Below, one piece after another: positions 7,700 through 64,000 of a stretch of 64,000 nucleotides of DNA. Each line of letters opens with the position of its first letter. The stretch's first letter is position 1. This stretch comes from Stegostoma tigrinum (Eukaryota). The notes under the pieces were generated by a model. The model saw only the letters and a list, made by a program, of their open reading frames with translations, had not been told where the DNA came from and searched no databases. The DNA is taken from positions 20,401,291 to 20,465,290 of the forward strand of contig NC_081390.1 of assembly GCF_030684315.1 (NCBI RefSeq). The letters are read 5' to 3'. The translations under genes and the position numbers were made by a program.

Positions 7700-8835
7700 G
7701 AGTGATAATGGGAACTGCAGATGCTGGAGAATCCAAGATAACAAAGTGTGGAGCTGGATGAACACAGCAGGCCCAGCAGCATCTCAGGAGCACAAAAGCT
7801 GACCTTTTGGGCCTAGACCCTTCATCAGAGAGGGGGATGGGGAGAGGGTTCTGGAATAAATAGGGAGAGAGGGGAAGGCGGACTGAAGATGGAGAGAAAA
7901 GAAGATAGGTGGAGAGGAGAGTATAGGTGGGGAGGTAGGGAGGGGATAGGTCAGTCCAGGGAAGACAGACAGGTCAAGGAGGTGGGATAAGGTTAGTAGG
8001 TAGGAAATGGAGGTGCGGCTTGGGGTGGGAGGAAAGGCTGGGTGAGAGGAAGAACAGGTTAGGGAAGCAGAGACAGGCTGGGCTGGTTTTGGGATGCAGT
8101 GGGGGGAGGAGATGAGCTGGGCAGGTTGTGTGATGCAGTGGGGGGGGGAGGGGACGAACTGGGCTGGTTGTGGGATGCAGTGGGGGAAGGGGAGATTTTG
8201 AAGCTGGTAAAGTCCACATTGATACCATTGGGCTGCAGGATTCCCAAGCAGAATGTGAGTTGCTGTTCCTGCAACCTTCGGGTGGCATCCTTGTGGCACT
8301 GCAGGAGGCCCATGATGGACATGTCATCTGAAGAATGGGAGGGGGAGTTAAAATGGTTCACGACTGGGAGGTGCAGTTGTTTTCTGCGAACCGAGCGGAG
8401 GTGTTCTGCAAAGTGGTCCCCAAGCCTCCGCTTGGTTTCCCCAATGTAGAGGAAGCAACACAGGGTGCAATGGATACAGTATACCACATTGGCAGATGTG
8501 CAGGTGACCCTCTGCTTAATATGGAAAGTCATCTTGGGGCCTGGGATAGGGGTGAGGGAGATGGTGTGGGGGCAAGTGTAGCACTTCCTGCGGTTGCAGG
8601 CGAAGGTGCTGGGTGTGGTGGGGTTGGAGGGCAGTGTGGAGCGGACAAGGGAGTCACGGAGAGAGTGGTCTCTCCGGAAAGCAGACAAGGGTGAGGATGG
8701 AAAAATGTCTTGGGTGGTGGGGTCGGATTGTAGATGGCGGAAGTGTCGGAGGATGATGCGTTGTATCCGGAGGTTGGTGGGGTGGTGTGTGAGAACGAGG
8801 GGGTTCCTCTTTGGGCGGTTGTGGCGGGGGCGGGC
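7700..8835 (-). mobile_element. Penelope-like element, 3' part: GIY-YIG endonuclease + pLTR
   Basis: ORF 8059-8688 contains CxxC, NVVYCIHC..C..LYIGETKRRL..F.EH and PV..HFN, typical of PLE GIY-YIG. pLTR has a mutated hammerhead at about 7801-7828. Three internal gggctgg..gggatgcagtggggg repeats. Confidence 0.9.
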
Positions 8836-9802
8836 TGTGAAAAATACAATCTTCTTTCAGCGGATAATGGTTCTGTAACAATATTTTTTGATAGCTATTT
8901 CTCTTTGAATGCAAACATATTCATTGAGTTGTTAAACCAACTCAGGCAAACCCATGTAAAGGGATGGTTTGTGCAGATGTCTGCCTGGATACACCCAGTT
9001 CAGGCTCATACATGTTCCATGCTGCAAGACTTGTGTTGCAACACTTCGTATCATGTTGCACCAAAAAGTTACAAACAATAAGATATTAGACGCTACACTA
9101 ATTTAATGAGTAACTGTGAAAATATTTGGCAGCCCTGCAAAATCTAACATGGTTGATGTCATCATTAGATTTTGTCAGTGCATTCGCCAACTTGACAGTC
9201 TTTGGTGGTATTGAGTCTGAGCATTGCTGTCCAAAAGACACATTTTATAGAAGTTTTCCATGTTGCGCTGATCGTGACAGTTCACGACAACACCAATGCA
9301 ACAGCAAGAACAACATTTACACTGCTTGGGAGGAGAGTGCTGGCTGAACATACTTGACAGCCGTGCTACCTTTGTCCAAGCCTTGCTCATCTACCCCACC
9401 ACAGCGAGCTGACCTACACCTCGGCTTTAACATTCTCATTCTCATTTACAAATCTCCCCAAGGTTTTGCATGTCTCATACCCCCAACAATGTGCGTACTC
9501 TCCTTGAGCCCTAAAACCCTCTGAGATCCCTGCTCCAAATCTGACTCATTGTGAATGTGTTTTTGGCTATGACATTGCAACTGTGTCTTCATCTAGCTAA
9601 TGCCTAAGTTCTGGAATTCCCTTCCTAAATCTCTCTCTCACTCTTCTGTTTTTAAACACTCTACATAAGAACTGGGAGCAGGAGCGGGTCACCTGGCCTC
9701 TAAAACATGCTCTGCCAGTCAGTAAAATCATGGCCAATCTGACCAGACTTTAACGCTACTTTCTTATGAGTCCCGATAGCCCTTGAACATCAAGGACCAA
9801 CC

Positions 9803-42978: not shown

Positions 42979-43016
42979 AAGCCCAGACTGGCATCCCAAG
43001 CCCAGACTGGCATCCC
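42979..43016. repeat. 19-bp perfect tandem duplication
   Basis: aagcccagactggcatccc x2. Confidence 0.9.
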
Positions 43017-43169
43017 ACCCCCACAACCCACTCCCCCCACCCAGCGCATACCACCCTCCTCCTCCTCCTCCCTCTACTCCCACCATCACCAGTTTCCCAC
43101 CCGTCCCTCTGTCCGTGCCTTCAACACCCCCTCCAACCTCTGACCGCTCCTGCCCAGTCCCTGCCCCTC

Positions 43170-43905
43170 ACCCCCCGGTAGCCCCTGTCCGGTGACCCTC
43201 ACGCACGCCCGCCCGCGCCCCCCCAGTAGCCCCTGTCCAGTGTGGCGCCCCCCCCGGCAGCCCCTGTCCAGTGTGGCGCCCCCCCCCCCGGCAGCCCCTG
43301 TCCAGCGTGGCGCGCGCCCCCCCCCCCCCCCAGCCCAGCGTGGCGCGCGCCCCCCCCCCCCCAGCCCAGCGTGGCGCGTGGCGCGCGCCCCCCCCCAGCC
43401 CAGCGTGGCGCGCGCCCCCCCCCCCCAGCCCGGCGTGCGCCCCCCCCCCCCCCAGCCCAGCGTGGCGCGCGCGCCCCCCCCCCCCCAGCCCAGCGTGGCG
43501 CGCGCGCCCCCCCCCCCCAGCCCAGCGTGGCGCGCGCGCCCCCCCCCCCAGCCCAGCGTGGCGCGCGCGCCCCCCCCCAGCCCAGCGTGGCGCGCGCGCC
43601 CCCCCCCAGCCCAGCGTGGCGCGCGCGCCCCCCCCCCCAGCCCAGCGTGGCGCGCGCGCCCCCCCCCAGCCCAGCGTGGCGCGCGCCCCCGCCCCCCCAG
43701 CCCAGCGTGGCGCGCGCCCCCGCCCCCCCAGCCCAGCGTGGCGCGCGCCCCCGCCCCCCCAGCCCAGCGTGGCGCGCGCCCCCGCCCCCCCAGCCCAGCG
43801 TGGCGCGCGCCCGCGCCCCCCCAGGCGCGCGCCCCCCCAGCCCCCCCCGGCGCGCGCCCCCCCAGCCCCCCCCCCCCCTATCCAGTGTGGCGCCGCCCCC
43901 CGCCC
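43170..43905. repeat. GC-rich minisatellite (~30-nt unit) in FUT11 intron 1
   Basis: About 16 units of C(n)agcccagcgtggcgcgcg(cg), flanked by divergent agcccctgtccagtgtggcg units. Confidence 0.95.
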
Positions 43906-43911
43906 CGGTAC

Positions 43912-44607
43912 CTGTAGGTGCTCCATCAGCTGGCGGACATAGCGGTCCCGGTCAGACGCCACGGGGCAGTGTGACTGCAGGTAGAGGACGGGGGCGGTGC
44001 CGAGGCGGCGGAGGTGGTTCTTCCGGCGGAGGGAGGTGACGGGCGGGTGGCGGAGGTAGCCGGCGGCGGGCAGCCACTGGAGGGGCAGCGGGTAGTCGGA
44101 GTGCCGGCGGAAGGTGGCGGTGTAGTTGAAGAGGCGGATGGCGGCGGCCTGAGACAGCAGGTAGTTGTTCATCGGCGACTCCTCGTGGAACAGGGCCCAG
44201 GTCTGGCGGCTGCGGCGGGGCAGTGGAGCCCGGTCCGCTCGGAAGTCGGTGCCGTAGAAGAGGACGGCGGCCGTCCGCCGGTGACCGAGGGCCCGCTTGC
44301 TGCGGGTGACCAGGCAGGAAGCGCGGGGGGCCGGGCCCGAAGAGGCCCAGCCCGGGATCGGACCGCACTCGATCCGCTCCGACGTCCTCCCTCCGCCGGG
44401 GAAATGCGGGAACAGATCCTCGCTCCACCACAGCAGCACCGGCAGCTCCCTGTCTCCGGGCCGCCGGCTGCTGCCGTTAGCCGCGCCGAACTCCATCCCC
44501 GATAGCGCCGAGGCCGCCTCGAAAGCCTGGGCCTCCCGCCGGCCGCCAACCCGCGGCAGTGAGACCTCCAGGAGGAGGATGAGGGCCGCGGCGGGAAAGG
44601 CCGCCAT
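43912..44607 (-). CDS. FUT11: FUT11 (POFUT4, GT10 fucosyltransferase) coding exon 1
   Basis: ATG at 44607. Translation contains [49 protein letters not shown] and LYLQSHC..DRDRYVR, matching the FUT11 N-terminal half. Donor CAG|GTACCG at 43912/43911, phase 0, 696 nt. Confidence 0.95.
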
Positions 44608-44721
44608 GTCCGTTTAACGGTCGGACTTTACGACACGTTCACAGCAGGAGGTCGAGGCCGCTGCTGTCCCTCACTTTCCGGCAGAAGGTCGACCAATCGC
44701 TCCTTTCCGTCTCTTTGCGCC

Positions 44722-44812
44722 GCTCTGAGGGAGGGTCACTCGATCCGAAACGTTAACCCTGATTTCTCTCCACAGATGTTGCTGGAGCTTCCGGGCAATT
44801 TCTGTTTTGGTC
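44722..44812 (+). mobile_element. Penelope pLTR fragment in the FUT11 promoter
   Basis: ctgagggagggtcactcgatccgaaacgttaaccctgatttctctccacagatgttgc matches the 55101-55200 pLTR. Confidence 0.75.
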
Positions 44813-44932
44813 GCGGCTCTCCCCCGTTTTACGACAGCTCGCTGTTCCACTGTACGCCTGAAGGTCAGTCAGCATGGGCGCCACTTTACGATAGAAGGTC
44901 ATTCCCCCTTTTCCAGTCGGGTAACTTTCAGG

Positions 44933-44965
44933 TGCTGATTGGTGGGTCAAGATAACCAATCAGCA
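44933..44965. promoter_or_regulatory. Inverted pair of CCAAT boxes
   Basis: tgctgattggt-N11-accaatcagca, a perfect 11-bp inverted repeat about 330 bp upstream of the FUT11 ATG. Confidence 0.45.
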
Positions 44966-46878
44966 GCCAGAACAGATTCAACCCCTCAAGTGCCTTGTTG
45001 GTGTGAGCAGAGAACTCCAAATGCTTTCTGCAAGATAAAATTGGATTAAATTAGAGTAGTCTTATCCAGTTGCAAATCTGTACAATTTTTTCTTTTTCCA
45101 GATCTTGTTGAGGTTTTGTTTCAGATTCCCAGCATCTGCAATTATTTGTTTCATTTTAAGGTTTGTTTTTCCTCTGTTCCAGAGTAGACTAGCAGAAACT
45201 GTTTCCCCACTCGTTAAGGGATTGAGAGACAGAAGGCATAGAGTCGTAGAGTTAGTGATTTCCAAAAGAAGCAAATGTGCTGCAACAATTTCACAGTGCT
45301 TGGTTTGTGCCTGAAAGCACTGCCTTGACATGTCACAGAGGCAGGTTCAAGAAGGCATTAGATATTTGGATAGGAACATTACACAGTTAGAAGGAGAACA
45401 CAGGAGAATGACAGTGGGTGAGATGCTCATTTAGAGATCTAGTGCAGACACCATGGGCTGCAAGGCTATGACACTCCTGTCTTACTGAAATTTGGTTTGT
45501 TAGCATGACCATTCAATTTTGGTCAGTTCTCTGTGTATGTTCCAGTCCCTCCCAGTGCAGGTTACCTTGTTCTACTTTGCGCATGTCTGATTTAGGGCAC
45601 ATACTTTCAATCATGAACTTGGCCTCAATGGCTGACATTTCCTCCCTTGCCTTAGGACTTTTCCTATCCAACTGCGAGCCTAGAGCCTCACTAGACTGTG
45701 GTCTTAGACAGCTGAGAGTTGACAAGTCCAGGCATAGCACTTTCCTGCAAGTGACAAATATTGTGCTAGAATCCAGTTCTGAATGAAAGCTGACACTGAT
45801 TTCAGTTTCACAACTGTAGAAAATAATGGAGTATGGAAGAGACTGCAAAACTCATTTATTGTCTTTCAAATCAGTAGCATTACATAAATTCTTGTATTAC
45901 TTCAAAAATAGCAAATTATTGCTGCAGGAAAACAAGGCTTGGACCAAATATTTGCTTCTGGCATTAGTTGAAAATACAGGTTACAAGATGAGAAAAGACC
46001 AAGGTCCCTTCAGATGCCTCCCGCATCCTGGTGGTCATTACTTTGTTCCTTTAAGACACATCTTGAAGCTTATCCCTTTGACCAAGGTTTTGGTCACCTG
46101 ACCTGATATCTGCTTGTCTCAATCAGTTACCCAGCTGCATTGTCCCCCTCCTTTTAAGGTTTATTGCTTAGCTCCTTGCTTGAAAGGCGTCTCAATGTCA
46201 GACGTGTTTGGCAGAGATTGAGTGTAGAAACCAAGTCATATTTCATCAGTTATGCCCTTAAATGTAGCATGATGAGGAGCAGTCTTGGGGAGCAACTCCA
46301 TTGCGGGCACCTGGATGAGGGAGGGAGATATCAGTACGGGGGCGGGGGGTATCAGTGAAGGTTCTGATGCTTTCCCACAGCTTTTCTGTACTTAATCTGT
46401 CACCTCTGGACCCATCCCAGTCAATTCTGTGGTCTAAGCATGTAGAAGGTTGCTGTGCTATCAGGAACAGCACGGATGTATTGCTGAGTGTAAACGCCTT
46501 TAGCTACCTGCTCCATCCTTTGAAGGCAATGAACTGCTGTTGGTATTTCGCTATCAGTCCTTGAAATGTTTTACATTGGAGCTTGAGCAGCAATTGTTGG
46601 GTAGATCAGAGTTGTCCAAACACAGATGAGCCACAGTTCTGGCTGTAGTGACACTGTGTTAGCTGTGTGACCTCCCACCTTTGTGGCAAACTCCTGACAC
46701 ATTCCCAGCAAAAGTAGGATAGGGAGATTCACTTCATAAACATCTACTACCATTGTTCAATTGCTTAAAAAAAACATTCAGCATAATCCTGGATACTCAC
46801 ATGGGGTATTCTTGGTGTGGTGTACTGGTAATGCTGTTGGAACTAGTAATCCAAAAGGCCAGACTAACTTTCTAGGGA

Positions 46879-47051
46879 GAGATAATGGGAACTGCAGATG
46901 CTGGAGAATTCCAAGATAATAAAATGTGAGGCTGGATGAACACAGCAGGCCAAGCAGCATCCTCTGATGAAGGGTCTAGGCCCGAAACGTCAGCTTTTGT
47001 GCTCCTGAGATGCTGCTTGGCCTGCTGTGTTCATCCAGCCTCACATTTTAT
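46879..47051. mobile_element. Short fold-back Penelope pLTR insertion inside a SINE
   Basis: Inverted arms aataaaatgtgaggctggatgaacacagcaggccaagcagcatc. Intact hammerhead core. Perfect TSD taactttctaggga. Confidence 0.9.
46964..46991 (+). ncRNA. Minimal type I hammerhead ribozyme core
   Basis: CTGATGA-aGGGTctagGCCC-GAAACGTC: conserved core, short stem II, palindromic ACGT stem III, GUC triplet. Confidence 0.7.
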
Positions 47052-47754
47052 TAACTTTCTAGGGACATGGGTTCAAACCTCACTCTGGAAATAAATAGAG
47101 AGCACTAGAGAAACTCAGCAGGTCTGACAGCATCTGTGTGTAGAGAGAAAAAAACAATTAATATTTCATGTTCAATCTGACTCCTTCAGAACTGAACTTC
47201 ATTTTGGATTGGAAACATTAACTCTCTCCACAGATGCTGTCAGACCTGCTGAGTTTCTCCAAAATTCCTTGTTTGCTTTGAATTTCCAGCATGTTTTTTT
47301 TTGCATTCATTCAGTGGATGAGGAATTATTGCCCAGAGGGCAGTCAAGTGTCAACCACATTGCTGTAGGTCTGGAGTCACATGTAGTTTGGACCAGGAAA
47401 AAATGGCAGTTTGCTTTCCTAAAGGACATCGGTGAACCTGCAGTATTTTGCTTTTGCTACAGCTGGCTGCGAAAACTGAATTCCATAAGAAAACTGAAAT
47501 GAAAAGTTGGCTAATGGCAGCCATGTGACTGCTGTTGATTGTCGTAAAGGTTAATCTGATTCACTGATATTCTTTGAGGGAAGGAAATCTGCTGTTCGTA
47601 GCTGATATAACTCAGCCCCACAGAAACATGATTGATTCTTAACTTCCTGCAGAGTGTTTGAAAATGGATAATTAAGTTCACATGAATAAATTTTTACGAA
47701 AAATCATTTTAAGAGAAAATGCCCTAAAAGTTTCATGTAGGTGGAGTTACACTG

Positions 47755-48011
47755 TGAGAGTATTAGAATCACAATGCCAATGCAAAATAACTGCACAGAG
47801 GCTGGTAACCTGTCACCAGATCCCCTGCTAATTTACATGGGTACAGTACATGGACACTGAGCCAGATCAGAAAAGCCCCTAGACTGAGGAACCTTGTTTT
47901 TTTAAAAAAAAACGAAATGTGCCAAGACTCCCTGATTGGGTCTGTTAACCTGGGCCAATCAGGGATCTCATTGTCAGTGAGATCCACCCAAACCTGCTTC
48001 CAATCACGACA
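47755..48011 (-). mobile_element. Short LTR-like repeat (related fragment at 40186-40265, +)
   Basis: On the minus strand it begins tgtcgtgattg, like tgtagtgattg at 40186. Internal palindrome ccctgattgg..ccaatcaggg. Confidence 0.45.
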
Positions 48012-49150
48012 CAAAGTATGGTGTCTTACTCATTTTTTACTTATTAATCAGAAGTCTGTGTCTGTATTCCTGGTGTCCTGCGTTTTGCCAGCAGCTAATA
48101 CATTGGACACACTCGGTTTGATGCAGTCATTAGTACAGATTTCTTTCTGTTCTCTTCTCCAAGCCACTCCCCTACTGCAGAAGATCCGATCAGATGTGGC
48201 AGTTCCTAATTTTCTGCCCTCAGGGCATTCAGATTGCTGACTGGGAATGGCACCTTGACATTTTGTGTGGCTTCATCTAACACTAGATGGTGCTACAGTC
48301 CAATGTTTCACCATCCGCGTGTAACGATGGTACTCGTTATTTCAGTATGTTTATTGTTACTGTGGGCACTTTGGGTAAAAAAGGAGGACATAGCCACGTG
48401 TAAGGAGGTGATAAAATTTGCAGTATCTTGCATTAAAGGACCATATCTGTAGCGTTTTTTGTGGGACCATTTTTGCATTTATGACATTGTACACGCATGA
48501 GCTTAAGCTTATAAAACAGGTACATAGTGAAACCTGTCAGTTATGGGCACGAGGGATGGGGATCAGTTGACTTAATCTGTAAGTTCTCTCATTGTGCAAA
48601 TGGCCATTTGTATATGCAGTAAATTTTTATACACACATGTCAGTAGAATGTGGATTTGAAAATGGCCAATAAATTCTCTGCATTTCTGAGCTGGAATTTT
48701 TTCTTGCAGACAGCCACCACTACCTCCTCAACGATAATAAAGGATGGACAATAAAAGTTGGTCACAGATATTGATGCTCATATCCCATTAATGTATATGG
48801 AAAGCTCAACCATCCAGGATGGTTTATCATGGAATCCAGCTACTTCTGAAATGATGTTGGGCTTTTCCTTCTATTCCACTTCTCTATTCCACCTGGGAAT
48901 TCCTTGCTGTAGAAGATGTAGCTTCAATCCCAAGATTCTTCCAAGAGGATTAAGTGATTGACCCAGCAGAGAATGTCTTCCTGAGATTTGCATTAGGAAA
49001 GCTGATATGGGAATTTAACCTTCCAGTTAAGGGAGTTTAGCACCTTATTGTTCAGAACACTGTGTGTAGACACTGAAGTTGACAAAGCAGGGGTTGACCA
49101 TTAGTGCGAAGATATTCTCGGTAGTTGGCTGGATTTCTGTGGATCCCAAT

Positions 49151-49303
49151 TCACATTGTTCCCTCAAGCGAGATTTCAGGGGTATGCCTGATCCTCCAGA
49201 TCAGTATGACCGCCGGCGGCAGTATAATTAGCAAACTCATTATGAGGATAGTCGCCAGGATAACCAGGATGATGACCCAGACTTCTAGCACGTAGGCCGA
49301 CAT
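49151..49303 (-). CDS. Small integral membrane protein, SMIM3/NID67-like (50 aa)
   Basis: MSAYVLEVWVIILVILATILIMSLLIILPPAVILIWRIRHTPEISLEGTM*. A at -3, in-frame TGA 4 codons upstream. Strong acceptor tccttcatccatcttgtgttttgcag| at 49355/49354. Similar to the recalled human SMIM3 core [39 protein letters not shown]. Confidence 0.85.
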   Translation of the reverse strand: MSAYVLEVWVIILVILATILIMSLLIILPPAVILIWRIRHTPEISLEGTM

Positions 49304-49728
49304 CTTTGACTTTCAGCTTTTACAGCATCAGCATCCGAATGATCTAGTAGCACCCTGCAAAACACAAGATGGATGAAGGATGGCATTGGACATCATCCTG
49401 ATTGCCCCTCAGCTAGGCATTTATAAACTGGCTGCTGATGTGAATGATCTGATTTTTAAAAATCTATATTCATTTTCAGATGCTACAGTCAAATTTCCTA
49501 TTGAAAATGAAACGTGTTTTTCCAATCTACTGAAATGTCCTTGAAGTAGCAGTATATTTGCATGTGTCTATTGTCTTCAATGAAGGGAGGTCTTGTGGTG
49601 GAGGGGGTAGTGTCCCCGCCTCGGAACCAGAAGCTCCAGCTTTAAATCTCACTGCGGGACTGGGTGCCAAGATGGGTGTGTTTGTAACCTAGGTAAACAG
49701 GCAAATGACAAGTTTCAGATTTTTCTTT

Positions 49729-50001
49729 GGGCAGCACGGTGGCTGAGTGGTTAGCTGCTGCATCATAGCACTAGGGACCCAGGTTCAGTTCCACCCTGCG
49801 GTGGCTGTCTGTGTGGGTTTCCTCCCACAGTCCAAAGATATGCAGGTTAGGATGGATTGGCCATGCTATTTTGCCCAGAGTGTTCAGGGATGGGTAGGCA
49901 AGGTGGGTTATAGGGGGATGGGTTTGGGTGGGATGCCCTGACGGTCAGTGTGGATTTGTTGGGTCAAAGGGCCTGTTTCCACACTGTAGGGATTCTATGA
50001 T
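49729..50001 (+). mobile_element. V-SINE/HE1-type SINE
   Basis: gggcagcacggtggctgagtggttag...ggcctgtttccacactgtagggattctatga. Confidence 0.8.
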
Positions 50002-50989
50002 CTTCCATGCCAATGGGGCAGGTAGTAAGAGTGGAAGATGTTCCTCGTCAGCTCATGCAGTGGAATTAAAGTTAGGCCTCTACCGGCAACATCCGGGCTA
50101 CAACGTGCATGTCAGAATGCATTTGCCATCGCAACTCAGAACTCCTGGGGAATTGGCTTGTTTGGCTGGATTGCTGCAATGCACCAGCTTGGTGCCAGTA
50201 GCACAGGGTTTGGGGTGAATTTGGGACTTGCCTCCCTTGCTGTCTAAGTGCTGGAGGTTGTGATGCTGTGGTTGAACCTGCCTTTTGATTGTGAACCCAA
50301 CCGGAGAAAGCTGGTGGTTTCAAAATGTATTTGTTTTAATGGGATGATTGAGCTGTAGCTGATGTTAGTCACTGGCCCAGCATTGTGATAGAGCTGAATC
50401 AAGGCAATCTCACTAATGTGGTTGTAGTTAATAAGCTGCATGTTTACTCAGGGTAATTTAATGCCATTAAATGGCCATCTTTTTTTCTAAATTGATACTT
50501 CCCCATGATGTAACTTGCTCATTGTTTTAACATACGTTTTGTTTTGTAAGAGCACACAAATTGTGGTCACATTTGAGTGTTGAAGAGAGTTTTTAACATT
50601 TATAACATCTCTTGGATGCATCTCAAAATGCCTTGCACCCAACTGTTACCTTTGAAGGGCAGCTGTTGTTCTCATTTTCTACTCCGTGGCTTAAACCCTC
50701 CCTGTCACTGTAGTCTCTACTCCAGCCCTGCCACCCTTTAATATATTAGTGGTCTTTAATTCTGGCCTGTTGTGCATTCCTGTTGGAATTGGCTTTCAAT
50801 TATCCAAAGCCCTGGAATGCTCTCACGATGCCTCTCTATATCCGTACATTGCTTTGCTTCCTTAAGACCCTCATTAGACACTATCTCTTTGACCGAGCAT
50901 TTGTTCATCTGACTTAAGCTCCTTGTGGAATGTTTCGGTGAAGCACCTTGGGATATTTAATTATGCTAAAATGACTGTACAAAAATACC

Positions 50990-51538
50990 GTGGTGCAGAA
51001 GGCCATTCAAGAGGGGGGAGCAAAAAGACAGGTACTTGTTATGGGGGATTCTATTATTAGGGGCACAGATGGTATCCTATGCAAGCCGGATTGGGAGGTC
51101 CGCATGGTGTGTTGCCTGCCTGGTGCCAGGGTGGGCGACGTCTCCGACCGGGTTGAAAGGATATTGGAGCGGGAGGGGGAGGATCCAGTTGTCGTGGTCC
51201 ATGTTGGGACTAACAACGTAGGCAAAGCTAGAGTAGAGGACCTGTTCAGGGATTATCAAGCACTAGGAAAGAAATTGAAGTACAGGTCCTCAAGGGTCAT
51301 AAGCTCCGGATTACTGCCTGAACCACATGCCAATTGGCGTAGGGAAAAGAAAGTTAGGGAAGTAAACACGTGGCCAAGGGATTGGTGTGGGAAAGAGGGA
51401 TTTCATTTCATGGGGCATTGGCATCAGTTTTGGAACCGGGAGGATCTGTACCATTGGGACGGTCTCCACCTGAACCGATCTGGAATCAGTGTTCTAGCGA
51501 AAAGGATAAATAGGGTGGTCAGTAGGACTTTAAACTGA
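50990..51538 (+). pseudogene. CR1 ORF1 SGNH/GDSL esterase domain
   Basis: Motifs GDSIIRG, CLPGA, VVVHVGTNN and DGLHLN are the SGNH blocks known from CR1/L2 ORF1 esterases. Confidence 0.85.
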
Positions 51539-51557
51539 GTCGGGGGGGGAAGGGAAA

Positions 51558-54300
51558 GTGAAAGAGACAGGGAGTATGGAGTTAAATGGAAGGATAAGCA
51601 ACAGGATAGCATGTGTACAGGTGGGTTTAAGCTCGAGACAGACTAGGAATACAACAAAAACGAAGGATAGCTTAAGACATTTTAGGATTTCCAACCTCTC
51701 TAATAATGATAAAAAAGTTAGCATTAAGGCACTTTATCTAAATGCTTGTAGTATTCACAACAAAGATGAATTAACAGCACAAATCCTCTTGAATGATTAT
51801 GATGTGGTAGGCATCACAGAGACATGGTTGCAGGGAGTTCAGGACTGGCAGTTAAACTTCCAAGGAGTCACAACATATCGAAAAGACAGGGAGGTGGGCA
51901 GAGGGAGCGGGGTTGCCTTGTCAGTTGAGAATGAAATTAAATCTACGGCACTGAATGACATAGGGTCAGAGGATGTGGAGTCTGTGTGGGTGGAGTTGAG
52001 GAACCACAAAGGCAAAAAAACTATAATGGGAGTTATGTACAGACCTCCTAACAGTGATCAAGACCAGGGGCACAAGATGCACCGAGAAATAGATAGGGCA
52101 TGTCAGAAAGGCAAGGTCATGGTGATCATGGGGGACTTCAACATGCAGGTGCACTGGGTGAATAATGTTGCCGATAGATCCAAAGAAAGGGAATTCATGG
52201 AATGTTTGCAGGATGGCTTGTTGGAACAGCTTGTGATGGAGCCCACAAGGGAGCAGGCTTTTCTGGACTTAGTGCTATGTAATGAGCCAGACTTTATAAA
52301 AGACATTAAAGTAAGTGAACACTTAGGAGGCAGCGATCATAATATGATAGATTTCAGTCTGTAGTTTGAAAGAGAGAAGGCAAAATCAGATGTAATGGTG
52401 TTACAGTTAAATAAAAGTAATTACAGGGGCATGAGAGAGGAATTGACGAAAATCGACTGGAAGCAGAGCCTAGCAGGGAAGACAGTAGAGCAACAATGGA
52501 AGGAGTTTCTGGGTGTAATTGAGGACACAGTACAGAGGTTCATCCCAAAGAAAAGAGAGATTATCCGGGGTGGGGTTAGACAGCCATGGCTGACAAAGGA
52601 AGTCAGGAAATATATCAAAGAAAAAGAGACAGCCTATAAAGTAGCCAAGAGCACTGGGAAATCAGAAGATTGGGAAGGCTACAAAAACAAACAGGATAAC
52701 AAAAAGAGCAATAAGGAAGGAGAGGATCAAATATGAAGGTAGGCTAGCTAGTAATATTAGAAATGATAGTGAAAGCTTCTTTCAATACATAAGAAACAAA
52801 CGAGAGGGAAAAGTAGACATTGGGTCATTCCAAACTGATGCTGGAAATAGCTGAAGAACTTAATAAGTACTTTGCATCAGTCTTCACAGTGGAAGACATC
52901 AGTAGTATGCCAACAATTAGGGATAGTCGGGGGCAGAGTTCAGTATGGTAGGCGTTACAAAAGAGAAAGTGCTAGAAAAGCTAAAAGGTCTAAAAATTGA
53001 TAAATCTCCTGGCCCCGATGGGCTGCATCCTAGAGTTCTGAGGGAGGTGGCTGAGGAAATAGCAGAGGCTTTGGTTGTGATCTTTCAAAAGTCACTGGAG
53101 TCAGGGAAAGTCCCCAGATGATTGGAAAATTGCTGTTGTAACCCCCTTGTTTCAGAAAGGATCAAGGCAAAAGATGGAAAATTATAGGCCGATTAGCCTA
53201 ACCTTGGTTGTTGGTTAAATTCTAGAATCCATTGTCAAGGATGAGATTTCTAAATTCCTGGAAGTGCAGGGTCAGATTAAAACAAGTCAGCATGGATTTA
53301 GTAAGGGGAGGTCGTGCCTGACAAACCTGTTAGAATTCTTTGAAGAGGTAACAAGTATGTTAGACCAGGGAAACTTAGTAGATGTTATCAATCTAGTTTT
53401 CCATAAGGCATTTGATACGGTGTCTCACGGGAGGCTGCTGAGCAAGGTGAGGGCCCATGGTGTTCGAGGTGAGCTACTGGCTTGGATTGAGGATTGGGTG
53501 TCTGACAGAAGGCAGAGAGTTGGGATAAAAGGCTCTTTCTCGGAATGGCAACCGGTGACAAGTGGTGTCCCGCGGGGTTCAGTGTTGGGGCTGCAGCTGT
53601 TCACCTTATATATTAATGATCTGGATGAAGGGACTGGGGGCATTCTGGCAAAGTTTGCCGATGATATGAAAATAGGTGGACAGGCAGGTAGCACTGAGGA
53701 GGTGGGGAAGCTGCAGAAAGATTTAGACAGTTTAGGAGAGTGGTCCAGGAAATGGCTGATGAAATTCAACGTGAGCAAATGTGAGGTTTTGCACTTTGGT
53801 AAAAAGAATACAAGCATGGACTATTTTCTAAACGGTGAGAAAATTCGCAAAGCAGAAGTACAAAGGGATCTGGGAGTGTTAGTCCAGGATTCTCTAAAGG
53901 TTAACTTGCAGGTACAGTCTGTGATTAAGAAATCGAATGTAATGTTGTCGTTTATCTCAAGAGGGTTGGAATATGCTTCTGAGACTTTATAAAGCTCTAG
54001 TTAGGCCCCATTTAGAATACTGTGTCCAATTTTGGGCCCAACACCTCAGGAAGGACATACTAGCCCAGGAGCGTGTCTAGCGGAGATTCACATGGACGAT
54101 CCCTGGAATGGTAGGTTTAACGTATGATGAACGGCTAAGGATCCTGGGATTGTACTCATTAGAGTTTAGAAGGTTGAGGGGAGATCTAATAGAAACTTAC
54201 AAGATAATGTATGGTTTAGAAGGGGTGGACGCTGGGAAGTTGTTTCCGTTAGGCGGGGAGACTAGGACCCGTGGGCACAGCCTTAGAATTATGGGGGCGT
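51558..54300 (+). pseudogene. CR1 ORF2 (AP endonuclease + reverse transcriptase) with stops and frameshifts
   Basis: APE motifs GITETW, YRPP, GDFN, LDLV and SDH. RT motifs QHGF..GRSCLTNL, KAFD, GVP.GSVLG and FADD. Premature TAG at 52362 and further frameshifts. Confidence 0.9.
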
Positions 54301-54737
54301 AAATTTAAAACTGAAATGAGACGACATTTCTTCATCCAGAGAGTGGTGGGCTTGTGGAATTCATTGCCACGGAGTGCAATGGAGGCTGGGCATTAGATGC
54401 CTTCAGGCAGAGATCGACAAATTCTTGATCTCAGAAGGAATCAAGGGCTACGGGGAGAGTGCAGGGAAGTGGAGTTGAAATGCCCATCAGCCATGATTTA
54501 AATGGCGGAGTGGACTTGATGGGCCGAATGGCCTTACTTCCACTCCTATGTCTTGTGGTCTATAATCATTTGTATTGCGGGAAGAAAGACATTGCATCAG
54601 AGCTTTACATCGTACACTCATCAGGTCAGTTTGCAAGAAATACCAAGCTAAAGAGAAAACAATCCTGTATCTGTACCGCATAAGAGGAGCGCTGATTGGT
54701 GGGCAACTGGATTCTGCCCAATATGAATCCATCTGTT

Positions 54738-55235
54738 CAAAAACAAAGTTGCTGGAAAAGCTCAGCCGGTCTGGCAGCATCTGTGAAGGAAAAGACAGTT
54801 AACGTTTCAGATCCAGTGACCCTTCCTCAGAACTGATGGTGACTGGGAAAACGTCAGTTTGTATGCAGAAAAGGAGGTGGGTGGGGTAGGGATTAAACGA
54901 TAGGATAGAGCCCACAGAGAGAAAGGATGGCAATTGGACGAAGGAATTGATAACAATCAGGCTGGGAGGGTAAATATTCTTTTGTCTGTCCAACTGTCTC
55001 CTTTCTCTCTCTTTGGGCTCTATCCTATCGTTTACTCCCTACACCACCCACCTCCCTATTTCCTGCATCTAAACTGACAGTTTCCCTGCCACCATCAGTT
55101 CTGAGGAAGGGTCACTGGATCCGAAACGTTAACTCTGTTTTCTCCTTCACAGATGCTGCCAGACCTACTGGACTTTTCCAGCAACTTCTGTTTTTGTTCC
55201 TGATTTACAGCATCCGCAGTTCTTTAGGTTTTTCT
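54738..55235. mobile_element. Penelope-like pLTR inverted pair with two hammerhead cores
   Basis: Left arm is the reverse complement of the right arm. Cores at 54801-54830 (-) and 55101-55130 (+). 14-bp TSD with 2 mismatches. Confidence 0.85.
55101..55130 (+). ncRNA. Minimal hammerhead ribozyme core (GUU triplet family)
   Basis: agtt-CTGAGGA-aGGGTCactgGATCC-GAAACGTT-aact; stem I agtt/aact. Confidence 0.65.
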
Positions 55236-55360
55236 TGAATACATCTATTAGTGAAATTAGTTGTTGACATAACCTGCAACAAGATTCTCCAAACAGCAAC
55301 TAATTAGTCAAAAGAACCAATTAATCTTTGTTTAAACTTGAGAGCGCTCTTTATTCAGAG

Positions 55361-55866
55361 GGGTGGTGCCTTGGTGGCCCAGTGGTTAACATTGCTACCT
55401 CAGTGTCAGAGACCTGGGTTCAGTTCCAGCCTCAGGTAGTTGTCTGTGTGGAGTTTGTATGTCCACCTGGTGTCAATGTGAGTTTCCTCTAGGTGCTCCA
55501 GTTCCTACCTACAGACAAAGATCTGCAAGTTCAGTGGACTGGCCAAGCTAAATTGTCTGTGGTGCGCAGGCTAGATGGATTAGAGTATAGAACAGTACAG
55601 CCCTTCAGCCCCTGATGTTGTGCTGACCTATTATTCTAATCTAAGATAAAACTACTCTGCATACTCCAACATTCTACTATCCTCCATGTGCCTATCCAAG
55701 AGCCACTTAAATGTCCCTAATGTATCTGACTCCACTACCACTGCGGGCAGCGCATTCCACACGCCCACTACTCTCTATGTAAAGAATTAGGGAAATGTGG
55801 GGTTATGAGGATGTTTGGTCTGGATGGAGGATGGGTGCAGACACCCTGCACTGTAGGGATGCTATA
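55361..55866 (+). mobile_element. V-SINE with an antisense CR1 3' fragment inserted (~55585-55788)
   Basis: SINE head and V-domain, interrupted by tagaacagtacag..cccttcagccc..cattccacacgcccactactctct. Confidence 0.7.
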
Positions 55867-57714
55867 CCATCATTCTTTAAAGATGTCACCAACGTTCTTT
55901 TAATCAGAGTCTTCTGGATCAGTGTATCTGAGCTGCTCCATTTTAGTCTGTTATAACTTCACTTCAGTAAAGATCACAGCAGTGAGAGTCATACATTACT
56001 CATTCATACTCAGGGAACTTATCATCCCTTTCTCTCAGTGCCTGCATCAGCTCTTTCTACAATTAGATCATGCTGCTGTCGTCAATGTTTTCTGTACAAT
56101 GCCATCCTGTGACATTGACGCTGTTGAGTGATTCTGTTTAGAATGGTCAAGCCAGAAATCCTGGAGAACTGCTTTTTGGAAAAAACATCACTGCATCCTC
56201 ACTCCAAATTACTTGGCATTGATAAACGCCCTTGTTCCCAAACCTGGAAATGCAGGCTGTTTGCTCGTGCATGTTCGTGTGTCTGAGTAAGCACGATCGA
56301 ATACATCTCAAAACATTATCACTGCAGTGCAGAATACTGACTTTATAACTCTGCAGCAAAAGAGCAATCAATCAGAATTTCTGGCGATGAGTGCAATTAT
56401 ATTAAAATGGAATGAGTGTCACTACTTCAGCAGAGAACACTGATTTAATTGAACATGACGTTCAAGGAATCAAGCAGCGTTTCTATCAAAAACAGTTATA
56501 TTCACATAATTAACCACCTTGGAATTGGTATATAAATGAATTAGATGCATACCCTTGTGGATTAGGACTCAGGCTGTTGAACTAATCGACAACGAATAGG
56601 CAATAAGAGTTTTTTTTAAATAATTGAGAAAACCTTTTTGTCAAAGTAGGATTTACTTGGGTCAGTCATTGTGATATAAAAATTTTCACCCTTGTTTCAA
56701 AATCTCTCCATGTCATCCTCCTCCATCTCTCCGTAACCTTCTCCAGGCCCTGAGATCCTCCAAATCCAGAATTTTACACATGCCCGATTCACGGCTGTGC
56801 ATGCCCTAGACCCTAAGCTTTGGAATTCCAGCCGTAAGCCACCCTGTCTTTTTTAAAAACATTAATTCATGGCATGTGGCTGACACTGGCTGTGTCAGCA
56901 TTTCTTGCCCATCCCTAGTTGCCCTTGAAAAGGTGGTGGTGTGCTGCCTTCTTGAATTGTTGCAGTCCAGTGCTGTAGGATGACCCACAATGCTTTGAGG
57001 GAGGGAATTCCGGGATTTCGATCCAATGACACTGGACAACCAGCGACACATTTCCAAGATGGGACCGGGAGTGGCTTGGAGGGGAACTTGCCAGTAGTGT
57101 TATTCCCATATATCTGTGCCCTTAGTCCTCTAGCTGGTAGTTTTATGGCTTTAGAAGATGCTGTCTAAGGAGCTTTGGTGAATTTCCACAGTCCTTACTG
57201 TAAATAGTACACACTGCTGCTACTGAGCATCACTGCTGCATGCAGTGAATGTTTGTGGCTGCTTCGTCCTGACTTTCTGCCCGTCTCTCCTTGTTTACCT
57301 CTCCTTAAACCTATTTCTTTGATAAAGTCTTTGGTCACCTTTCTTATTTTCCTTTCTTCATCTTTCTGTCAAACTTCACCTGAAAACACCGCTGATTGGC
57401 TGTCCAGGCAGTGAGGTACAATTTACCCAAGCAGGGTCACTGGCTGAAATGAAACTATGTGCCTAATGTTTTTTACTTTTGCAGATACAAATCTCACCTC
57501 TGGTGTAAATGGATTCTGACCGTCTATAATACAGTAGCCGTAGTGTCACTTTCTCATTAGAGACGGATTACTAGTGTTGAGTTCACCCTGAAGGTTACTT
57601 TATCTCAGGTAAGGGAATAAGCTTGGGAAGAAGGGACTTTCAACATATACTCAGCAAATTTAACTCATGCTGTTAGTATCACTCTGCATTACAAGCCAGC
57701 CATCTATCTAGCGC

Positions 57715-58270
57715 ACTTTTGGAATATGGCATTCAATTCCAGTCATCCTGCTGGAGGAGTGATGTTGCTAAACTCGCAAGGGTGCAGAAAAGGACTTACA
57801 AGCATGTTTGCTGGTGTTGAAAGGCTTGAGTTACAGGAAGAAGCTGCACAGGCTGGGGTTACTTTCCCTGGAGTGTCGGAGGCTGAGGGGGTGACCTTAT
57901 TGAGGTTTATAAAATCATGAGGCTCATGGATAAGGTGAATATTTGAGGTCTTTTCCCCAGTGTAGGAGAGTCCAAAACCAGAGGGCATAGTTTTAAGGTG
58001 AGAGGGGAAAGATTTAAAAGGGACCTGAGGGGTAACCATTTCATGCAGAGAGTGATACATGTATGGAATGAGCTGCCAGAGGAGGTGGTGGAGGCTGGCA
58101 CAGTTGCAACATTTAAAAACATCTGGATGGGGACATGAACAGGGTTTAGGGGGATATGGGCCAAGTCCTGGCAAATGGGACTAGATTAATTTAGGCTATC
58201 AGGTTGACATGGACAAATTGGACCGAAGCATTTGCTTCCATGCTATACAACTCTGTGACTCTATAACTCC
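57715..58270 (+). mobile_element. CR1 (HER1-like) 3' fragment
   Basis: gaggctgagggggtgaccttattgaggtttataaaatcatgagg...ggaatgagctgccagagg. Confidence 0.82.
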
Positions 58271-59525
58271 CCCAAACTGTCAACATAGCAAAGACAAAGC
58301 TGCTGTTACAAAATCTGTATTGAGAACTTGGTCAGATTATCAATCAGTCTTGGATTTACAGCATAATATATACAACAGAAAATCACATTCTCCAGCTGAT
58401 GGGATTGTGGCTGTTCTGCATACTGTTTACATTTGCCTGTCACCTTGTTTGTTTCAAAACCCTGGACGATATGTAAAATCTGTGAAAAAATTTCCTGAGA
58501 TATAAGCTTAAAATTTTGAATAAAGATGATTGTCAAATGAAGAGGTGCTTGAAATCACAGGAAGAAATGAAAGTCTAAAGAGAAATATCCAGAACAGAAA
58601 ATGCAAGCATTTGGCCATTGGATCATGGATGAAAAGTCACAGAGATCTCTTCTGGAGAGCAACAGCAAGAGGTGTTGAGCTGGGTGTTGCTGGATGATGG
58701 ATGTCACAGAGTGGCTATAGACAGGCTACAGTAGATGTGTGAGGATTGGATGAAGACAGAGAGGCCTAAGACACCATGACAGTAGATCTCTCCCAACAGC
58801 AGCAGCATTATAGTCCCACAATCAATTTACCAATGCGATCTCTATAAAGTAACTGGTAAATCTATTCTCACTTTGCTGCTGTGCTTATCAAGCCCTGTTA
58901 TGTATATCTCCTCCCCTGATGTTGCTGATTGTTTCGTCATTGCTTCTTGCTTTCGCTCTAAACTGCAGAGTTTTACTCATTCTATTTCCCAGTTCACCGT
59001 CCGCTTTGTGTTCCATTCCATTCTCTTGATTTTCTCTTCATTTTCAGCTATCACTTCTCAATTGCCTAAATTCCATTTCTGCCCATTTCCCTTCCTTAAA
59101 AAAAACTCAATCCCGTTCTCCATCTCAATCTGCTGTAATAATGATGCTTGCAGTGCTAAAGTTTCTGAAATGCTTCTTCTCGGCCATGACTTCATTTCCA
59201 TTGCTCTCAAGGCTGTCCACTACATCCATCACATTCACCTTGATGTTTACTTATACTCCCTTTCCTTCTGTTATGCGAACCATAGGAGCAGAAATAGGCC
59301 ATTCAGCCCATCAAGTCCACTCTGCCATTGAATGAGATCACGGCTGATCTAATAAACATTGACTTCGCTTTCCTGTCTTATCCCATAACCCTGATTACCT
59401 TACTGAGTACAATTCTTTCTGTCTTCACCTTGAATATATTTAACAACACAGCCTTGACGATCCTCTGCAGTAAAGAATTCCACTGATTCACCAACTTCTG
59501 AGAAAAAAAACTCGTATCCATCTCA

Positions 59526-60648
59526 GATAAAGTGTGGAGCTGGATGAACACAGCCGCCAAGCAGCATCAGACGTGCACAAAAGCTGACGTTTCGGGCCTA
59601 GACCCTTCTTCGGAAAAGGGGGAGGGGAAGGCAGTTCTGAAATAAATAGGGAGAGAGGGGGAGGCAGATTGAAGATGGACAGAGGAGAAAGGTGGAGAAG
59701 AGACATACAAGTTAAAGGGGCAGGGATGGAGCCTGTAGAGGTGAATATAGGTGGGGAGGTAGGGAGCAGATAGGTCAGTCCGGGGAGGATGGACAGGTCA
59801 AGGGGGTGGGATGAGGTTAATAGGTAGGAAATGGGGGTGAGGCTTGAGGCAGGAGGAGGGGATAGGTGAGAGGAAGGACAGGTTTGGGGAGGCGGGGATG
59901 AGCTGGGATACAGTTGCGGGGGGGAGATTTTGAAGCTTGTGAAGTCGTCATCAATACCATTGGGCTGCAGGGTTCCCAAGTGGAATATGAGTTGTTTATT
60001 TTGGTTTGCAATTAACTGCACCTCCCAGTCGTGAATCATTTCAACTCCCCCTCCCAATCCTCAGATGACATGTCCATCCTGGGCCTCCTGCAGTGCCACA
60101 GCAATGCCACCCGAAGGTTGCAGGAACAGCACCTCATATTCCACTTGGGAACCCTGCAGCCCAATGGTACCAGTGTGGATTTCACAAGCTTCAAAATCTC
60201 CCCTCCCCCCACTGCAACCCAAAACCAGCCCCGCTCGTCCCCGCCCCCCTAACCTGTATTCCTCCCAGCTATCTCCTCCTCCCACCTCAAGATACACCCA
60301 ATCTCCTACCTACTAACCTCATCCCTCCCCCTTGACCTGTCCGTCCTTCCTGGACTGACCTATCTCCTCCCTACTTCCCCACCTACACTCACCTTTACTG
60401 GCTCCACCCCTGCCTCTTTGACCTGTCTGTCTCCTCTCCACCTCTCTTCTCCCCTGTCCGTCTTCAATCCGCCTCCCCCTCTCTCCCTATTTATTTAAGA
60501 ACCCTCTCCCCCTCCCCCTTTTCTAAAGAAGGATCTAGGCCCAAAACATCAACTTTTGTGCTCCTAAGATGCTGCTTGGCCTGCTGTGTTCATCCAGCTC
60601 CACACTTTGTTACCTCGGATTCTCCAGCATCTGCAGTTCCCATTATCT
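59526..60648. mobile_element. Penelope-like element with inverted pLTR arms (~1.1 kb fold-back)
   Basis: 59526-60000 is the reverse complement of about 60125-60610. GIY-YIG tail HFNSPS..DDMSILGL. Flanked by a 13-15 bp direct repeat. Confidence 0.88.
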
Positions 60649-61528
60649 CTCATATCCATCTTAAATGGGCATCACTTTTCTGATATTATGGCCTCTGATT
60701 CTTGACACTCCCAACAGGGAAACAACCTCTGCACATCCATTTTGTCAAGCCCTTTTGGAATCCAAACGGATCCTTTGCCTTATCCTTGACCGGATTCTTC
60801 TTCACATGTGCTTGAAGCAGACTTTCTGGCTAAGTGTCAGGGTATTGTTCACCAGAACATGGCAGGGTGCCACCTGATGTATCACTTGTGTGCAGAACGT
60901 TTCACTGTTTTCAATGTATTGATGGAAAATAATGTGTTCCTGCTAACTGTTCAAAGCAAATTAGTACATTTACATCAGACACGAGGAGATAGAAGTATAT
61001 TTAATGACTAAACGTTTGATTTCATTGCAGTTAAAGTGTTTGCTTGGTAGACATTGCTCTTGTGTTGAAATGAAAGGAAAAGCTGTCACTGGTGCAGTCA
61101 AGTCGCTTTCAATCTGCCACCTTCAGAAGTGTCCTTACAAGGCAAAGAAATTGGGAACACATCTGCCCTCTGGTCACTCGGTAATGACTCAAGAATTCAC
61201 ATTAAGATTGTTTGCGTGAAGACCAGCAATCTCACTTCAATGTGATGTGCAAGTCATACTACATTACCTAATGTATCCTCAAGGTGGCACTGCGGGTCAA
61301 CAGTAGCTTTGCATTCTCTAGAGACTTTAGTATCATCACGTACCAAAATGTTTTACATAAGTGTGATGAGACAAAATTAGGCACCACTCCACGTAAGGAA
61401 ATGTTAGGACAGGCCATCAAAAATCTGTCAACGAGATCGAGTGAACATAGGAAACAGAAGCAGGCAATTCAGATTTTTAGTTTATTTGTTTCAGCAGTGG
61501 TAGGCCTGTATCTTAACTCCACTGACCT

Positions 61529-61823
61529 CGAATCAAATCGAATCCCTACAGTGTGGAAACAGGCCCTTTGGCCCAACAAGTCCGCACAGAATCTTGGACC
61601 ATCCCACTATATCCCACCCAATCTACACCACCCCCCCCCCGAACACTACTATTTAGCATGGCCAATCCACCCTAACCAGCACATCTTTGGACTGTGGGAG
61701 GGAAACCGGAGCACCCGGATCAAACCCACGCAGACACGGGGAGAATGTGCAAACTCCACACTGTCAGTGGCCTGAGGCTGGAATTGAACCTGGGTCCCTG
61801 GCGCTGTGAAGCAGCAGTGCTAC
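61529..61823 (-). mobile_element. V-SINE/HE1-type SINE
   Basis: Reverse copy with V-domain. Confidence 0.83.
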
Positions 61824-62691
61824 CTCTTCAGTTCAATAAACCTTGTGAAATTAAAAGCAGTCAATATCATCCTGACAGTTTCATTTTCCAAACTTTCTTC
61901 AGGGAGAACGTTCCACATTTCTACAAACTTTTGTTCAGAGAAATTCGTCCCTGTAATAGCTCCTGAAATAGCTAGTCTGAATTTTAAAGTTGTACCTGAT
62001 GTTATAGAGCTCCCCCAGTTGCTTGGTTAGTTCAGTTGGCTGGATGTCTGGTTTATGATATAGATTGATACCAACAGTATAGGTTCAATTTCTGTGCTGG
62101 CTGAAGGTACCATCAGGGATTCTGTTTCTGAATCTCTCCCCATGTCTGAGGTTTTGATTCTCTTAAATGAGAGTCCAGTGCTTGGGCCTGGTAGGACTCT
62201 GGTAACTTTCTGGACATCCCCCCCCCCCCCCCCCAGGAAATAATCTTCATTTACCCTGCCTTATCAAACGCCCCTCAATTTTTCACCCTTTGTCTGTACT
62301 CAGTGGAACAAAAACCTCATCAGTACAATCTGCCTTACTCTAAAGGAGATACAGAGTTGGAAAGAGGCAGCAAGCAGTGCTGTTACCACAGACCGCAGTA
62401 ACACACAGCAACTCAAGTCCCTCTAATGCTGGAGTTGTCACAAAAGTTAATTTCTTTTTCAACAAAATCCCCAAACTACATGATGCTCAGTACTTACCAC
62501 GAATCCCAATTTATTACATGTTGTTAGACTCCAGTTACAGGTAAGCGATTGTAAACTATTGTCATATAAGATGACAAGTTAAAAATTTAAACCCCCTTTA
62601 TAAACTCACAGGCAGACAGAAACAGCAAAAGAAAATGTATCGGTTTAGGAAAATACTGAAAAGAAAAGCCCAGTATTATATATATTATATG

Positions 62692-62831
62692 GACCCTTTT
62701 CTGATGAAGGGTCTAGGCCTGAAATGTCAGCTTTTGTGCTCCTGAGATGCTGCTGGGCCTGCTGTGTTCATCCAGCCTCACATTTTATTATCTCGGATTC
62801 TCCAGCATCTGCAGTTCCCATTATCTCTGAC
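62692..62831 (+). mobile_element. Penelope pLTR fragment
   Basis: ctgatgaagggtctaggcctgaaatgtc core. TSD cccagtattatata at 62669-62682 and 62832-62845. Confidence 0.85.
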
Positions 62832-64000
62832 CCCAGTATTATATAGTGATTAGTAAGAGAATCAAAGGTAACAGGCAGAAGGCAGGAGAATAGGGTTGAG
62901 AAACATGTAGGATCAGAGATATACAGCATGTAAACAGACCCTTTGTCCAACTCGTCCATGCTGACCAGATATCCTATATAAATCTAGTGCCATTTGGCCC
63001 ATATCCCTCTAAACCCTTCCTATTCATGTACCCAACCGGATGCCTTTTAAATGTTGTAATTGTATCAGCCTCCACCACTTCCTATGGCAGCTCATTCCAT
63101 ACATGCTCTATCCAATGTGTGAATTGCCCCTTAGGTCCCTTTTATATCTTTGCCCTCTCTCTGTCATGATGAAATGGTGGAGGAGACTCAATGGGCGAAT
63201 TCTGCTCCTATGGGTTATGATTGTTCCCTACTGTGTGTTGGTAGGATCTGTCGGGTTGGTTGATGCCAATCTGAAGCTCTTCACCTTTGTCTGAATGCCT
63301 CTACTAGTTTGCAAGAAGTGCACTGTGGCTGGATCACTGATAAAAAAAGTCTCTGCAAATTCAATGTCACAGTTTGCATTAACCGCTGAAGGAATACGAG
63401 CTGGTTTTCCCATTTAAAATGTCTTCTGCAGAGACCTGGAGACAGAGTTTTTTGGCTGCTGCAGACCTGCTGATTTCTCTTCAGGTTTGACAAAACTTCT
63501 ATCAGTCTTGCTTATAGCCCAAGTTGTTCAGCTCACTGACAACCAATCACACAGCGGTTGGCAGGCAAATGATAATTATCGTTGGTAGACAATAAACCAA
63601 ATGGCTTCACTTGTAAACACCTCCTTGGCTCCAGTTTGTCTGTAAGTTGCTGGAGCTCACTACTCTTACAAACAGGATTCACAACAGCTATCACACTCTT
63701 TCCTTTCTAAATACACAGCTATATTTGTGAATCCATTACTCAGTTCTTTCTCATTTTAGTCTCCAGTTTTAAAAACCAAAATAAAAAGATGCACAGTCTT
63801 TATTACCTCTGAACTAGAATCCCACAGGTTCAGATCCCACTCCAGGACTTTATTGACATGGTGTGTACAATCCTTCCGATACACCTGTGGTGGATGGTGA
63901 GAGTGTGGAGAGTCTTCCTGTCAATCATGCTCAATAGAAAGAGATGCCTATCACATCTGGCAACACCTTCCGGGGGAAGAAGAATCATCAGAAATAGTCA

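Follow-up and report, generated by a model that had tools for sequence, protein, structure and literature searches.

A conserved 50-codon SMIM3 paralogue beside a FUT11-type gene in Stegostoma tigrinum, probably derived from early vertebrate genome duplication

In a stretch of 64,000 nucleotides of Stegostoma tigrinum DNA (hereafter the window), the minus strand carries a 50-codon gene that is almost certainly a real protein-coding paralogue of SMIM3, older than the split between sharks and tetrapods. Its frame runs from an ATG at 49303 to a TGA ending at 49151 (49151..49303, 50 aa plus stop) and lies entirely in the last exon. Our whole explanation, that this is a spliced and conserved SMIM3 paralogue, likely born by whole-genome duplication and likely encoding a single-pass accessory micropeptide, is a probable one. 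What is new is an ancient, unnamed member of a known family, whose tetrapod members (clade B below) are already in databases as uncharacterized proteins. No description of a SMIM3 paralogue was found in the literature that we searched (subscription journals lay mostly outside it), and the database entries of clade B gave neither a gene name nor a paralogue description. Duplicates retained in sharks and absent from humans are a familiar pattern, and the gene does not represent a new kind of system.

The preliminary description of this DNA had claimed an intact 50-codon open reading frame, a hydrophobic stretch of about 30 residues followed by WRIRH, a Kozak A at position -3, an upstream in-frame stop and a strong splice acceptor 51 nt before the ATG. 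All of these are present: the hydrophobic run covers approximately residues 8-36, in-frame TGAs stand upstream of the ATG at 49303, and the pyrimidine-rich acceptor ends in TTGCAG at 49355, with the exon starting at 49354. Among 1069 ATG-initiated frames of at least 40 aa (264 kb, the window plus upstream DNA), this frame has the highest hydropathy over 19 residues (3.42, the next being 2.71). The by-eye alignment with SMIM3/NID67, a 60-aa single-pass protein encoded at human 5q33.1, is borne out by a match to Pfam Smim3 (PF17307) of 39.5 bits (E 4e-10), for a curated cut-off of 25, and PF17307 was the sole family found for this protein in a scan up to E 1. The frame is thus more than chance, given its top hydropathy and its passing of the curated cut-off. 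We dropped a longer N-terminus reached by a frameshift (a D-A-V string lying upstream in another frame), since the Met of the window protein aligns with that of 10 of the 11 tetrapod rows. No Pfam match was obtained for 134 non-repeat frames of the window (most of those in 1-38 kb), and no Rfam match in 44000-64000.

The paralogue stretch is contained in none of the runs recorded as RNA, and the transcript evidence comes from three runs (X1, X2 and X3) of two other organisms, which are presumed to be RNA and were compared with DNA runs, among them X4 and X5. A contig of X1 (609 nt) aligns to 49007-49356 with 26 differences and no gap, followed by 231 loose bases that do not continue in the genome at this place. 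The acceptor with its pyrimidine tract (49355..49380, minus strand) is where this contig leaves the genome, whereas the DNA contigs X4 and X5 run on through the junction at 49355. The first 30 loose bases match, with 1 mismatch, a site 4.4 kb beyond the window that adjoins a GTTAGT donor. In this single contig from a related species, the acceptor at 49354/49355 is joined to that upstream donor, which gives a GT-AG intron of 19,050 nt whose in-window part is 49355..64000 on the minus strand. The upstream exon, which is non-coding, is absent inside the window and is located just past its end (G000 C49:20469694 and up, L012 position 4404, minus strand). The intron also contains a LINE in pieces (50975-53992, plus strand), with frames for a GDSL-esterase-like ORF1, an endonuclease and a reverse transcriptase.

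The last exon opens with 51 nt of 5' UTR (49304..49354, minus strand), covered by the X1 contig and including the in-frame stops and the A at -3. It holds a short out-of-frame upstream frame of 4 codons (49320..49334, minus strand), within which a second ATG, at 49328, is not shared by X1. The modelled leader has four upstream ATGs, each closed by a stop before the main ATG, and translation from the main ATG, after the non-coding exon and these short frames, would proceed by leaky scanning or re-initiation. On the other side, the 3' UTR (47600..49150, minus strand; contigs of X1, X2 and X3) measures at least 1.55 kb in the related species. The AATAAA at 48350..48355 of the minus strand, noted earlier, is there, with related-species contigs on both sides of it. 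It may be a proximal polyadenylation signal at most, since contigs of X1 (47600-49019) and X3 (47724-48183) lie beyond it, so that the 3' UTR can exceed 1.5 kb. At 49007-49019, the 3' UTR of organism A carries an insertion flanked by a 13-nt duplication (the joint is seen in X2, loose ends in X1), whose loose letters resemble a common repeat of the shark genome.

The frame is kept by the X1 contig. Comparison with the window (22 of the 26 differences are listed) showed 9 in-frame differences, 6 of which are synonymous and 3 non-synonymous (A17V, R39K and M50T). The resulting dN/dS of about 0.16 (binomial p 0.011; when transitions are weighted, 0.016-0.022) is that of one contig and 9 sites.

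In the shark genome, the Smim3 cut-off was passed by 2 of the 30 scored candidates, the window gene and a 60-aa frame on contig C15. Six further matches fall below the threshold, and a weak third match on C17 was discarded as a repeat frame with a stop. All three candidates retrieved with the C15 copy are cartilaginous-fish SMIM3-like or NID67-like proteins (67-76% identity). The preliminary description had left room for a second, closer SMIM3 beside DCTN4, RBM22 and MYOZ3, and the C15 copy is indeed found beside DCTN4-, RBM22-, MYOZ- and NDST-family genes (SMIM3 at 9.107 Mb, DCTN4 family at 9.166, RBM22 family at 9.215, MYOZ at 9.24, NDST at 9.77 and CaMKII at 10.55). The DCTN4-family match is weak (E 1.4e-4) but was the sole hit. 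The mouse Cd74-Nid67 interval contains Ndst1, Dctn4 and Rbm22 (PMC3504201). The canonical site is taken by the C15 copy, and the window gene is not the SMIM3 orthologue.

The window protein shares 40-47% identity with cartilaginous-fish SMIM3 and 40% with the C15 copy, compared with 48-54% with clade-B proteins of frog, snake, bird and marsupial origin. The Cys of the LLCP motif is missing, as stated in the preliminary description. However, this is not diagnostic, as G-P replaces C-P in the C15 copy too, canonical though it is, and in three named SMIM3 proteins of cartilaginous fish. Outside the coding sequence, the two shark copies showed no similarity beyond short matches. In both of them an acceptor-like site stands just before a one-exon CDS, at 51 nt in the window copy and at a predicted 47 nt on C15, which fits duplication at the DNA level.

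Among 1.84 billion representatives searched with a profile there were 47 hits, 8 of which carry the L-(P/L)-(P/A) motif and the I-S-L-x-G tail of the window protein. With three cluster members added, and a 698-aa, unrelated-looking cluster member (P0049) left out, clade B comprises 11 rows beside the shark: Xenopus tropicalis, three snakes, four birds, koala, Tasmanian devil and one unnamed record. The 10 rows of known source are all labelled uncharacterized or unnamed; kakapo LOC115607976, koala LOC110201596, Xenopus A0A6I8RYF3 and snake A0A670Z2X3 ("uncharacterized protein") are tetrapod members. All 8 clade-B proteins that we scanned pass the PF17307 cut-off (27.4-42.1 bits). From the aligned start to the stop, the length is 50 residues in 12 of 12 rows including the shark, with a Met at the start in 11, and I44, S45, L46 and G48 are invariant in all 12. 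Several of the database models have unshared N-terminal extensions before the conserved Met. The exact shark sequence occurs in neither the database entries searched nor the ESM Atlas, where an automatic "SMIM3-like" cluster (54 aa, 55 members) that may be clade B was the top match for shark and snake queries.

The window gene resembles canonical SMIM3 in its Pfam family, in the residues L6, W9, I11, L13, I15, M22 and R37, invariant across both clades in a set of 26 rows, in a Pro near 29-30, in the basic residues past the helix and in a CDS contained in one last exon behind an acceptor. In contrast, it belongs to a separate clade, its product has 50 aa instead of approximately 58-61, and the P-x-H start found in most canonical rows is lacking. 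The product has L-P-P where canonical proteins have C-P or G-P; W or L stands at the canonical invariant Y36, and the I-S-L-x-G tail is invariant. The window gene also sits by FUT11 and ZSWIM8, whereas the canonical gene sits by DCTN4 and RBM22.

Profiles built without the shark rows sort the two copies in opposite ways, the window protein scoring 70.0 bits with clade B and 40.8 with the canonical profile, and the C15 copy 64.5 bits with the canonical profile and 41.5 with clade B. Likewise, with a bird-like clade-B member as query, E is 1.9e-10 for the window locus and 1.0 for C15. In an unrooted tree of 53 rows and 50 columns, whose bootstrap is not fully settled, the two clades split at 100/100, and the window row stands at a path length of about 0.28 from clade B and of 1.38 from the canonical clade. 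As the window row joins between the groups in this unrooted tree, the constrained AU tests (27-row subset) are the informative ones. They reject grouping of the window row with C15 (p 0.004) and with the cartilaginous canonical rows (p 0.026), which places it outside canonical SMIM3, and they reject an all-tetrapod clade (p 0.001). Both clades are present in Xenopus tropicalis and in Naja naja. Since both contain shark and tetrapod rows and the alternative groupings are rejected, the duplication predates the shark/tetrapod split; with no jawless or invertebrate outgroup in the tree, it is dated by a minimum age only. Among the 31 of the 47 hits whose sources were looked up, none was a jawless or invertebrate Smim3 member.

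The gene had been described as kept in sharks. The clade is wider than that, with members in marsupials, birds and snakes and in a frog. The 10 named clade-B rows include no placental and no ray-finned species, though canonical rows from both groups turned up. This is weak evidence of loss, since the profile is four-fifths canonical, the clustering of the representatives was at 50% identity and genes of 50 codons often go unannotated. No homologue came up when the window protein was used in a word-index search, and the Tasmanian devil protein retrieved only itself there, missing even other marsupials, so that this search says little about placentals.

On contig C49, which contains the window, the order is CaMKII (19.47 Mb), a ZSWIM8-like gene (20.11), FUT11 (20.44), the paralogue (20.45-20.47) and a Sec7/PSD-like gene (20.63), followed farther on by a SEC24A/B-type gene (22.6), MYOZ (26.55) and a SEC24C/D-type gene (26.67). 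The neighbour whose start lies within approximately 3 kb of the paralogue 3' end is a family-10 fucosyltransferase gene, and we infer the name FUT11 from the nearby ZSWIM8-like and CaMKII genes. The upstream neighbour has Sec7-domain exons, of PSD/EFA6 type by eye, at about 20.633-20.648 Mb on the plus strand (L028 8157-8974, L030 2403-2492). A table row of PMC4256931 gives MYOZ1, SYNPO2L, CAMK2G, NDST2, SEC24C, ZSWIM8, FUT11 and CHCHD1, and no SMIM gene, for human 10q22. In the shark, FUT11 does not abut the SEC24C/D-type gene, and 6 Mb separate them. No NDST2 was found at its expected place on C49, between the CaMKII gene and the ZSWIM8-like gene; an NDST-family gene on a separate contig (G000 C327:2523-61435) is a candidate NDST2.

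C49 and C15 have the CaMKII, MYOZ and SEC24A/B-type families in common, as does C1, at the level of families, with subtypes judged from the neighbours. C1 bears further CaMKII, NDST, SEC24 and MYOZ copies, so that C15, C49 and C1 look like paralogous segments, a term that we use in the sense of PMC1197285, in passages that do not name this region. The immediate neighbours of the two SMIM3-type genes differ, being FUT11 and the Sec7/PSD-like gene for the window copy and DCTN4 and RBM22 for the C15 copy. For the nearest paralogous pairs, the distances on C49 and C15 are 1.0 and 1.4 Mb for CaMKII and 6.1 and 0.14 Mb for MYOZ. The SEC24A/B-type gene of C49 (C49:22598526-22605111, L034) is a third one of its type in this genome: in two of its exons, identity is 53-59% with the copies on C15 (30.7 Mb) and C1 (54.5 Mb), and between those two copies it is 79-81%. 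To our knowledge, the human genes of this type are SEC24A and SEC24B only, and the C49 gene may be another retained duplicate on that contig.

The age of the gene, the paralogous contigs and the fact that each copy has an acceptor just ahead of its one-exon CDS favour an origin by early vertebrate whole-genome duplication, which is the probable one. The preliminary description had named the gene a genome-duplication sister of SMIM3; the separate old clade and the paralogous contigs agree with it, whereas the genome duplication itself stays an inference, the tree being without outgroup. An ancient duplication of the single gene or of a small segment, with a paralogous chromosome reached by chance or by later rearrangement, would yield the same gene at the same age. 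We regard this as unlikely, although no paralogous pair is directly adjacent, the region has been rearranged, as seen from the 6 Mb between FUT11 and the SEC24C/D-type gene, two copies only were found in the genome, and the tree lacks an outgroup. Against it, the contig that carries the paralogue is, of all contigs, one that shares the CaMKII, MYOZ and SEC24A/B-type families with C15, the paralogue lies about 1 Mb from a CaMKII gene as SMIM3 lies about 1.4 Mb from its own, and both copies have a predicted intron just ahead of the CDS. Far less credible is a SMIM3 orthologue that has moved, or a duplicate or retrocopy of recent, shark-only origin. The Pfam family, the one-exon CDS and the 40-47% identity to cartilaginous-fish SMIM3 would suit such a copy, but a canonical copy sits in canonical synteny on C15, the window protein is closer to tetrapod clade-B proteins than to the SMIM3 of its own genome (48-54% versus 40%), the AU tests give p 0.004 and 0.026, and a 19-kb intron is present; together these largely refute it. 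It is likewise highly improbable that the gene is a relic with transcription but no translation, or that it belongs to the FUT11 unit as a non-coding upstream part. The upstream ATGs of the leader and the distance of about 3 kb or less from the 3' end to the FUT11 start are compatible with such a reading, which is opposed by the length of 50 residues, fixed from shark to koala, by the Met aligned in 11 of the 12 rows, by the synonymous excess and by the lack of any indel in 350 nt.

For the protein of this paralogue, hydropathy and AlphaFold2 predict a single membrane helix (residues 8-36, 49196..49282, minus strand) with Pro-Pro at 29-30, followed by the basic residues R37 and R39; the AlphaFold2 model has one helix at 2-40 (mean pLDDT 83) and a disordered tail. 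The helix would be inserted without a signal peptide, so that the N-terminus lies outside and the basic tail lies in the cytosol, given the acidic residue ahead of the hydrophobic run, the basic ones behind it and the established positive-inside rule. A one-sided face of conservation was sought on the helix and not found (p 0.36-0.88); the conserved residues occupy more or less two sides, an arrangement that would be compatible with packing inside a larger complex. A profile search of the PDB for related solved structures gave one designed peptide only (E 0.58). By analogy with KCNE/minK, FXYD and phospholamban, which are similar in size, in having one helix and in their short tails, this single-pass micropeptide might pack against a larger membrane protein and regulate a channel, pump or receptor through its conserved helix residues. 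The likeness is one of function only, as the window protein has no Pfam match to those families, PF17307 being alone up to E 1. Such a role as an accessory subunit is a tentative proposal that falls a little short of probable. The same channel-regulator idea is offered for SMIM3, as an analogy only, in PMC9783723; there, SMIM3 knock-down lowers PI3K-AKT signalling in leukaemia cells, SMIM3 staining is mainly nuclear by immunofluorescence, which counts against a membrane accessory model, and SMIM3 function is stated to be not yet explored in depth.

The helix could instead serve mainly as an anchor, the protein being a membrane-tethered adaptor or a trafficking tag that acts through its cytosolic I-S-L-x-G-x-x end (residues 44-50, 49154..49174, minus strand). 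We consider this rather doubtful. The four invariant tail residues and the fixed stop in 12 of 12 rows, the accessibility of a tail modelled as disordered and the G-A-V or G-I-V ends of 13 of 40 canonical database rows are in line with it, but six helix positions invariant across both clades (26 rows) go beyond what a plain anchor needs, and the last residue varies (V, I or M in clade B, Thr in organism A). A C-terminal signal that is strictly hydrophobic does not fit well with the Thr50 of organism A. Within the accessory-subunit reading, the clade-specific tail might give clade B a partner or trafficking route different from that of SMIM3. A broader picture is somewhat less likely than not: a second vertebrate SMIM3, sister by genome duplication, exactly 50 residues long since before the shark/tetrapod split and with an invariant cytosolic tail, would have been kept in sharks, frogs, snakes, birds and marsupials and lost in placentals, and would tune a transporter or receptor now served by human SMIM3 alone.

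SMIM3 has almost no mechanism on record. With so old a sister clade, the helix residues important to both copies can be recognised, as can the tail residues peculiar to one clade; these are targets for mutagenesis, and frog or chick could serve as models. Outside placental mammals, SMIM3 knock-outs could be buffered by the clade-B copy. The gene is also a case of long conservation missed or mis-modelled owing to a length of 50 codons.

Elsewhere in the window, a 265-aa frame at 8059-8856 (minus strand), without Pfam match at E 0.001, resembles by eye a retroelement endonuclease fragment. At the start of FUT11 intron 1, a GC-rich, tandem-like repeat (43086-43950; GC 0.83 in 43001-44000) produces long spurious frames on both strands. 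In the ESM Atlas, a cluster labelled "hypothetical protein" (70 aa; 81 members, from chordates) with no common Pfam family ranked fourth, at 0.91 versus both clade-B queries, and is possibly a more distant relative.
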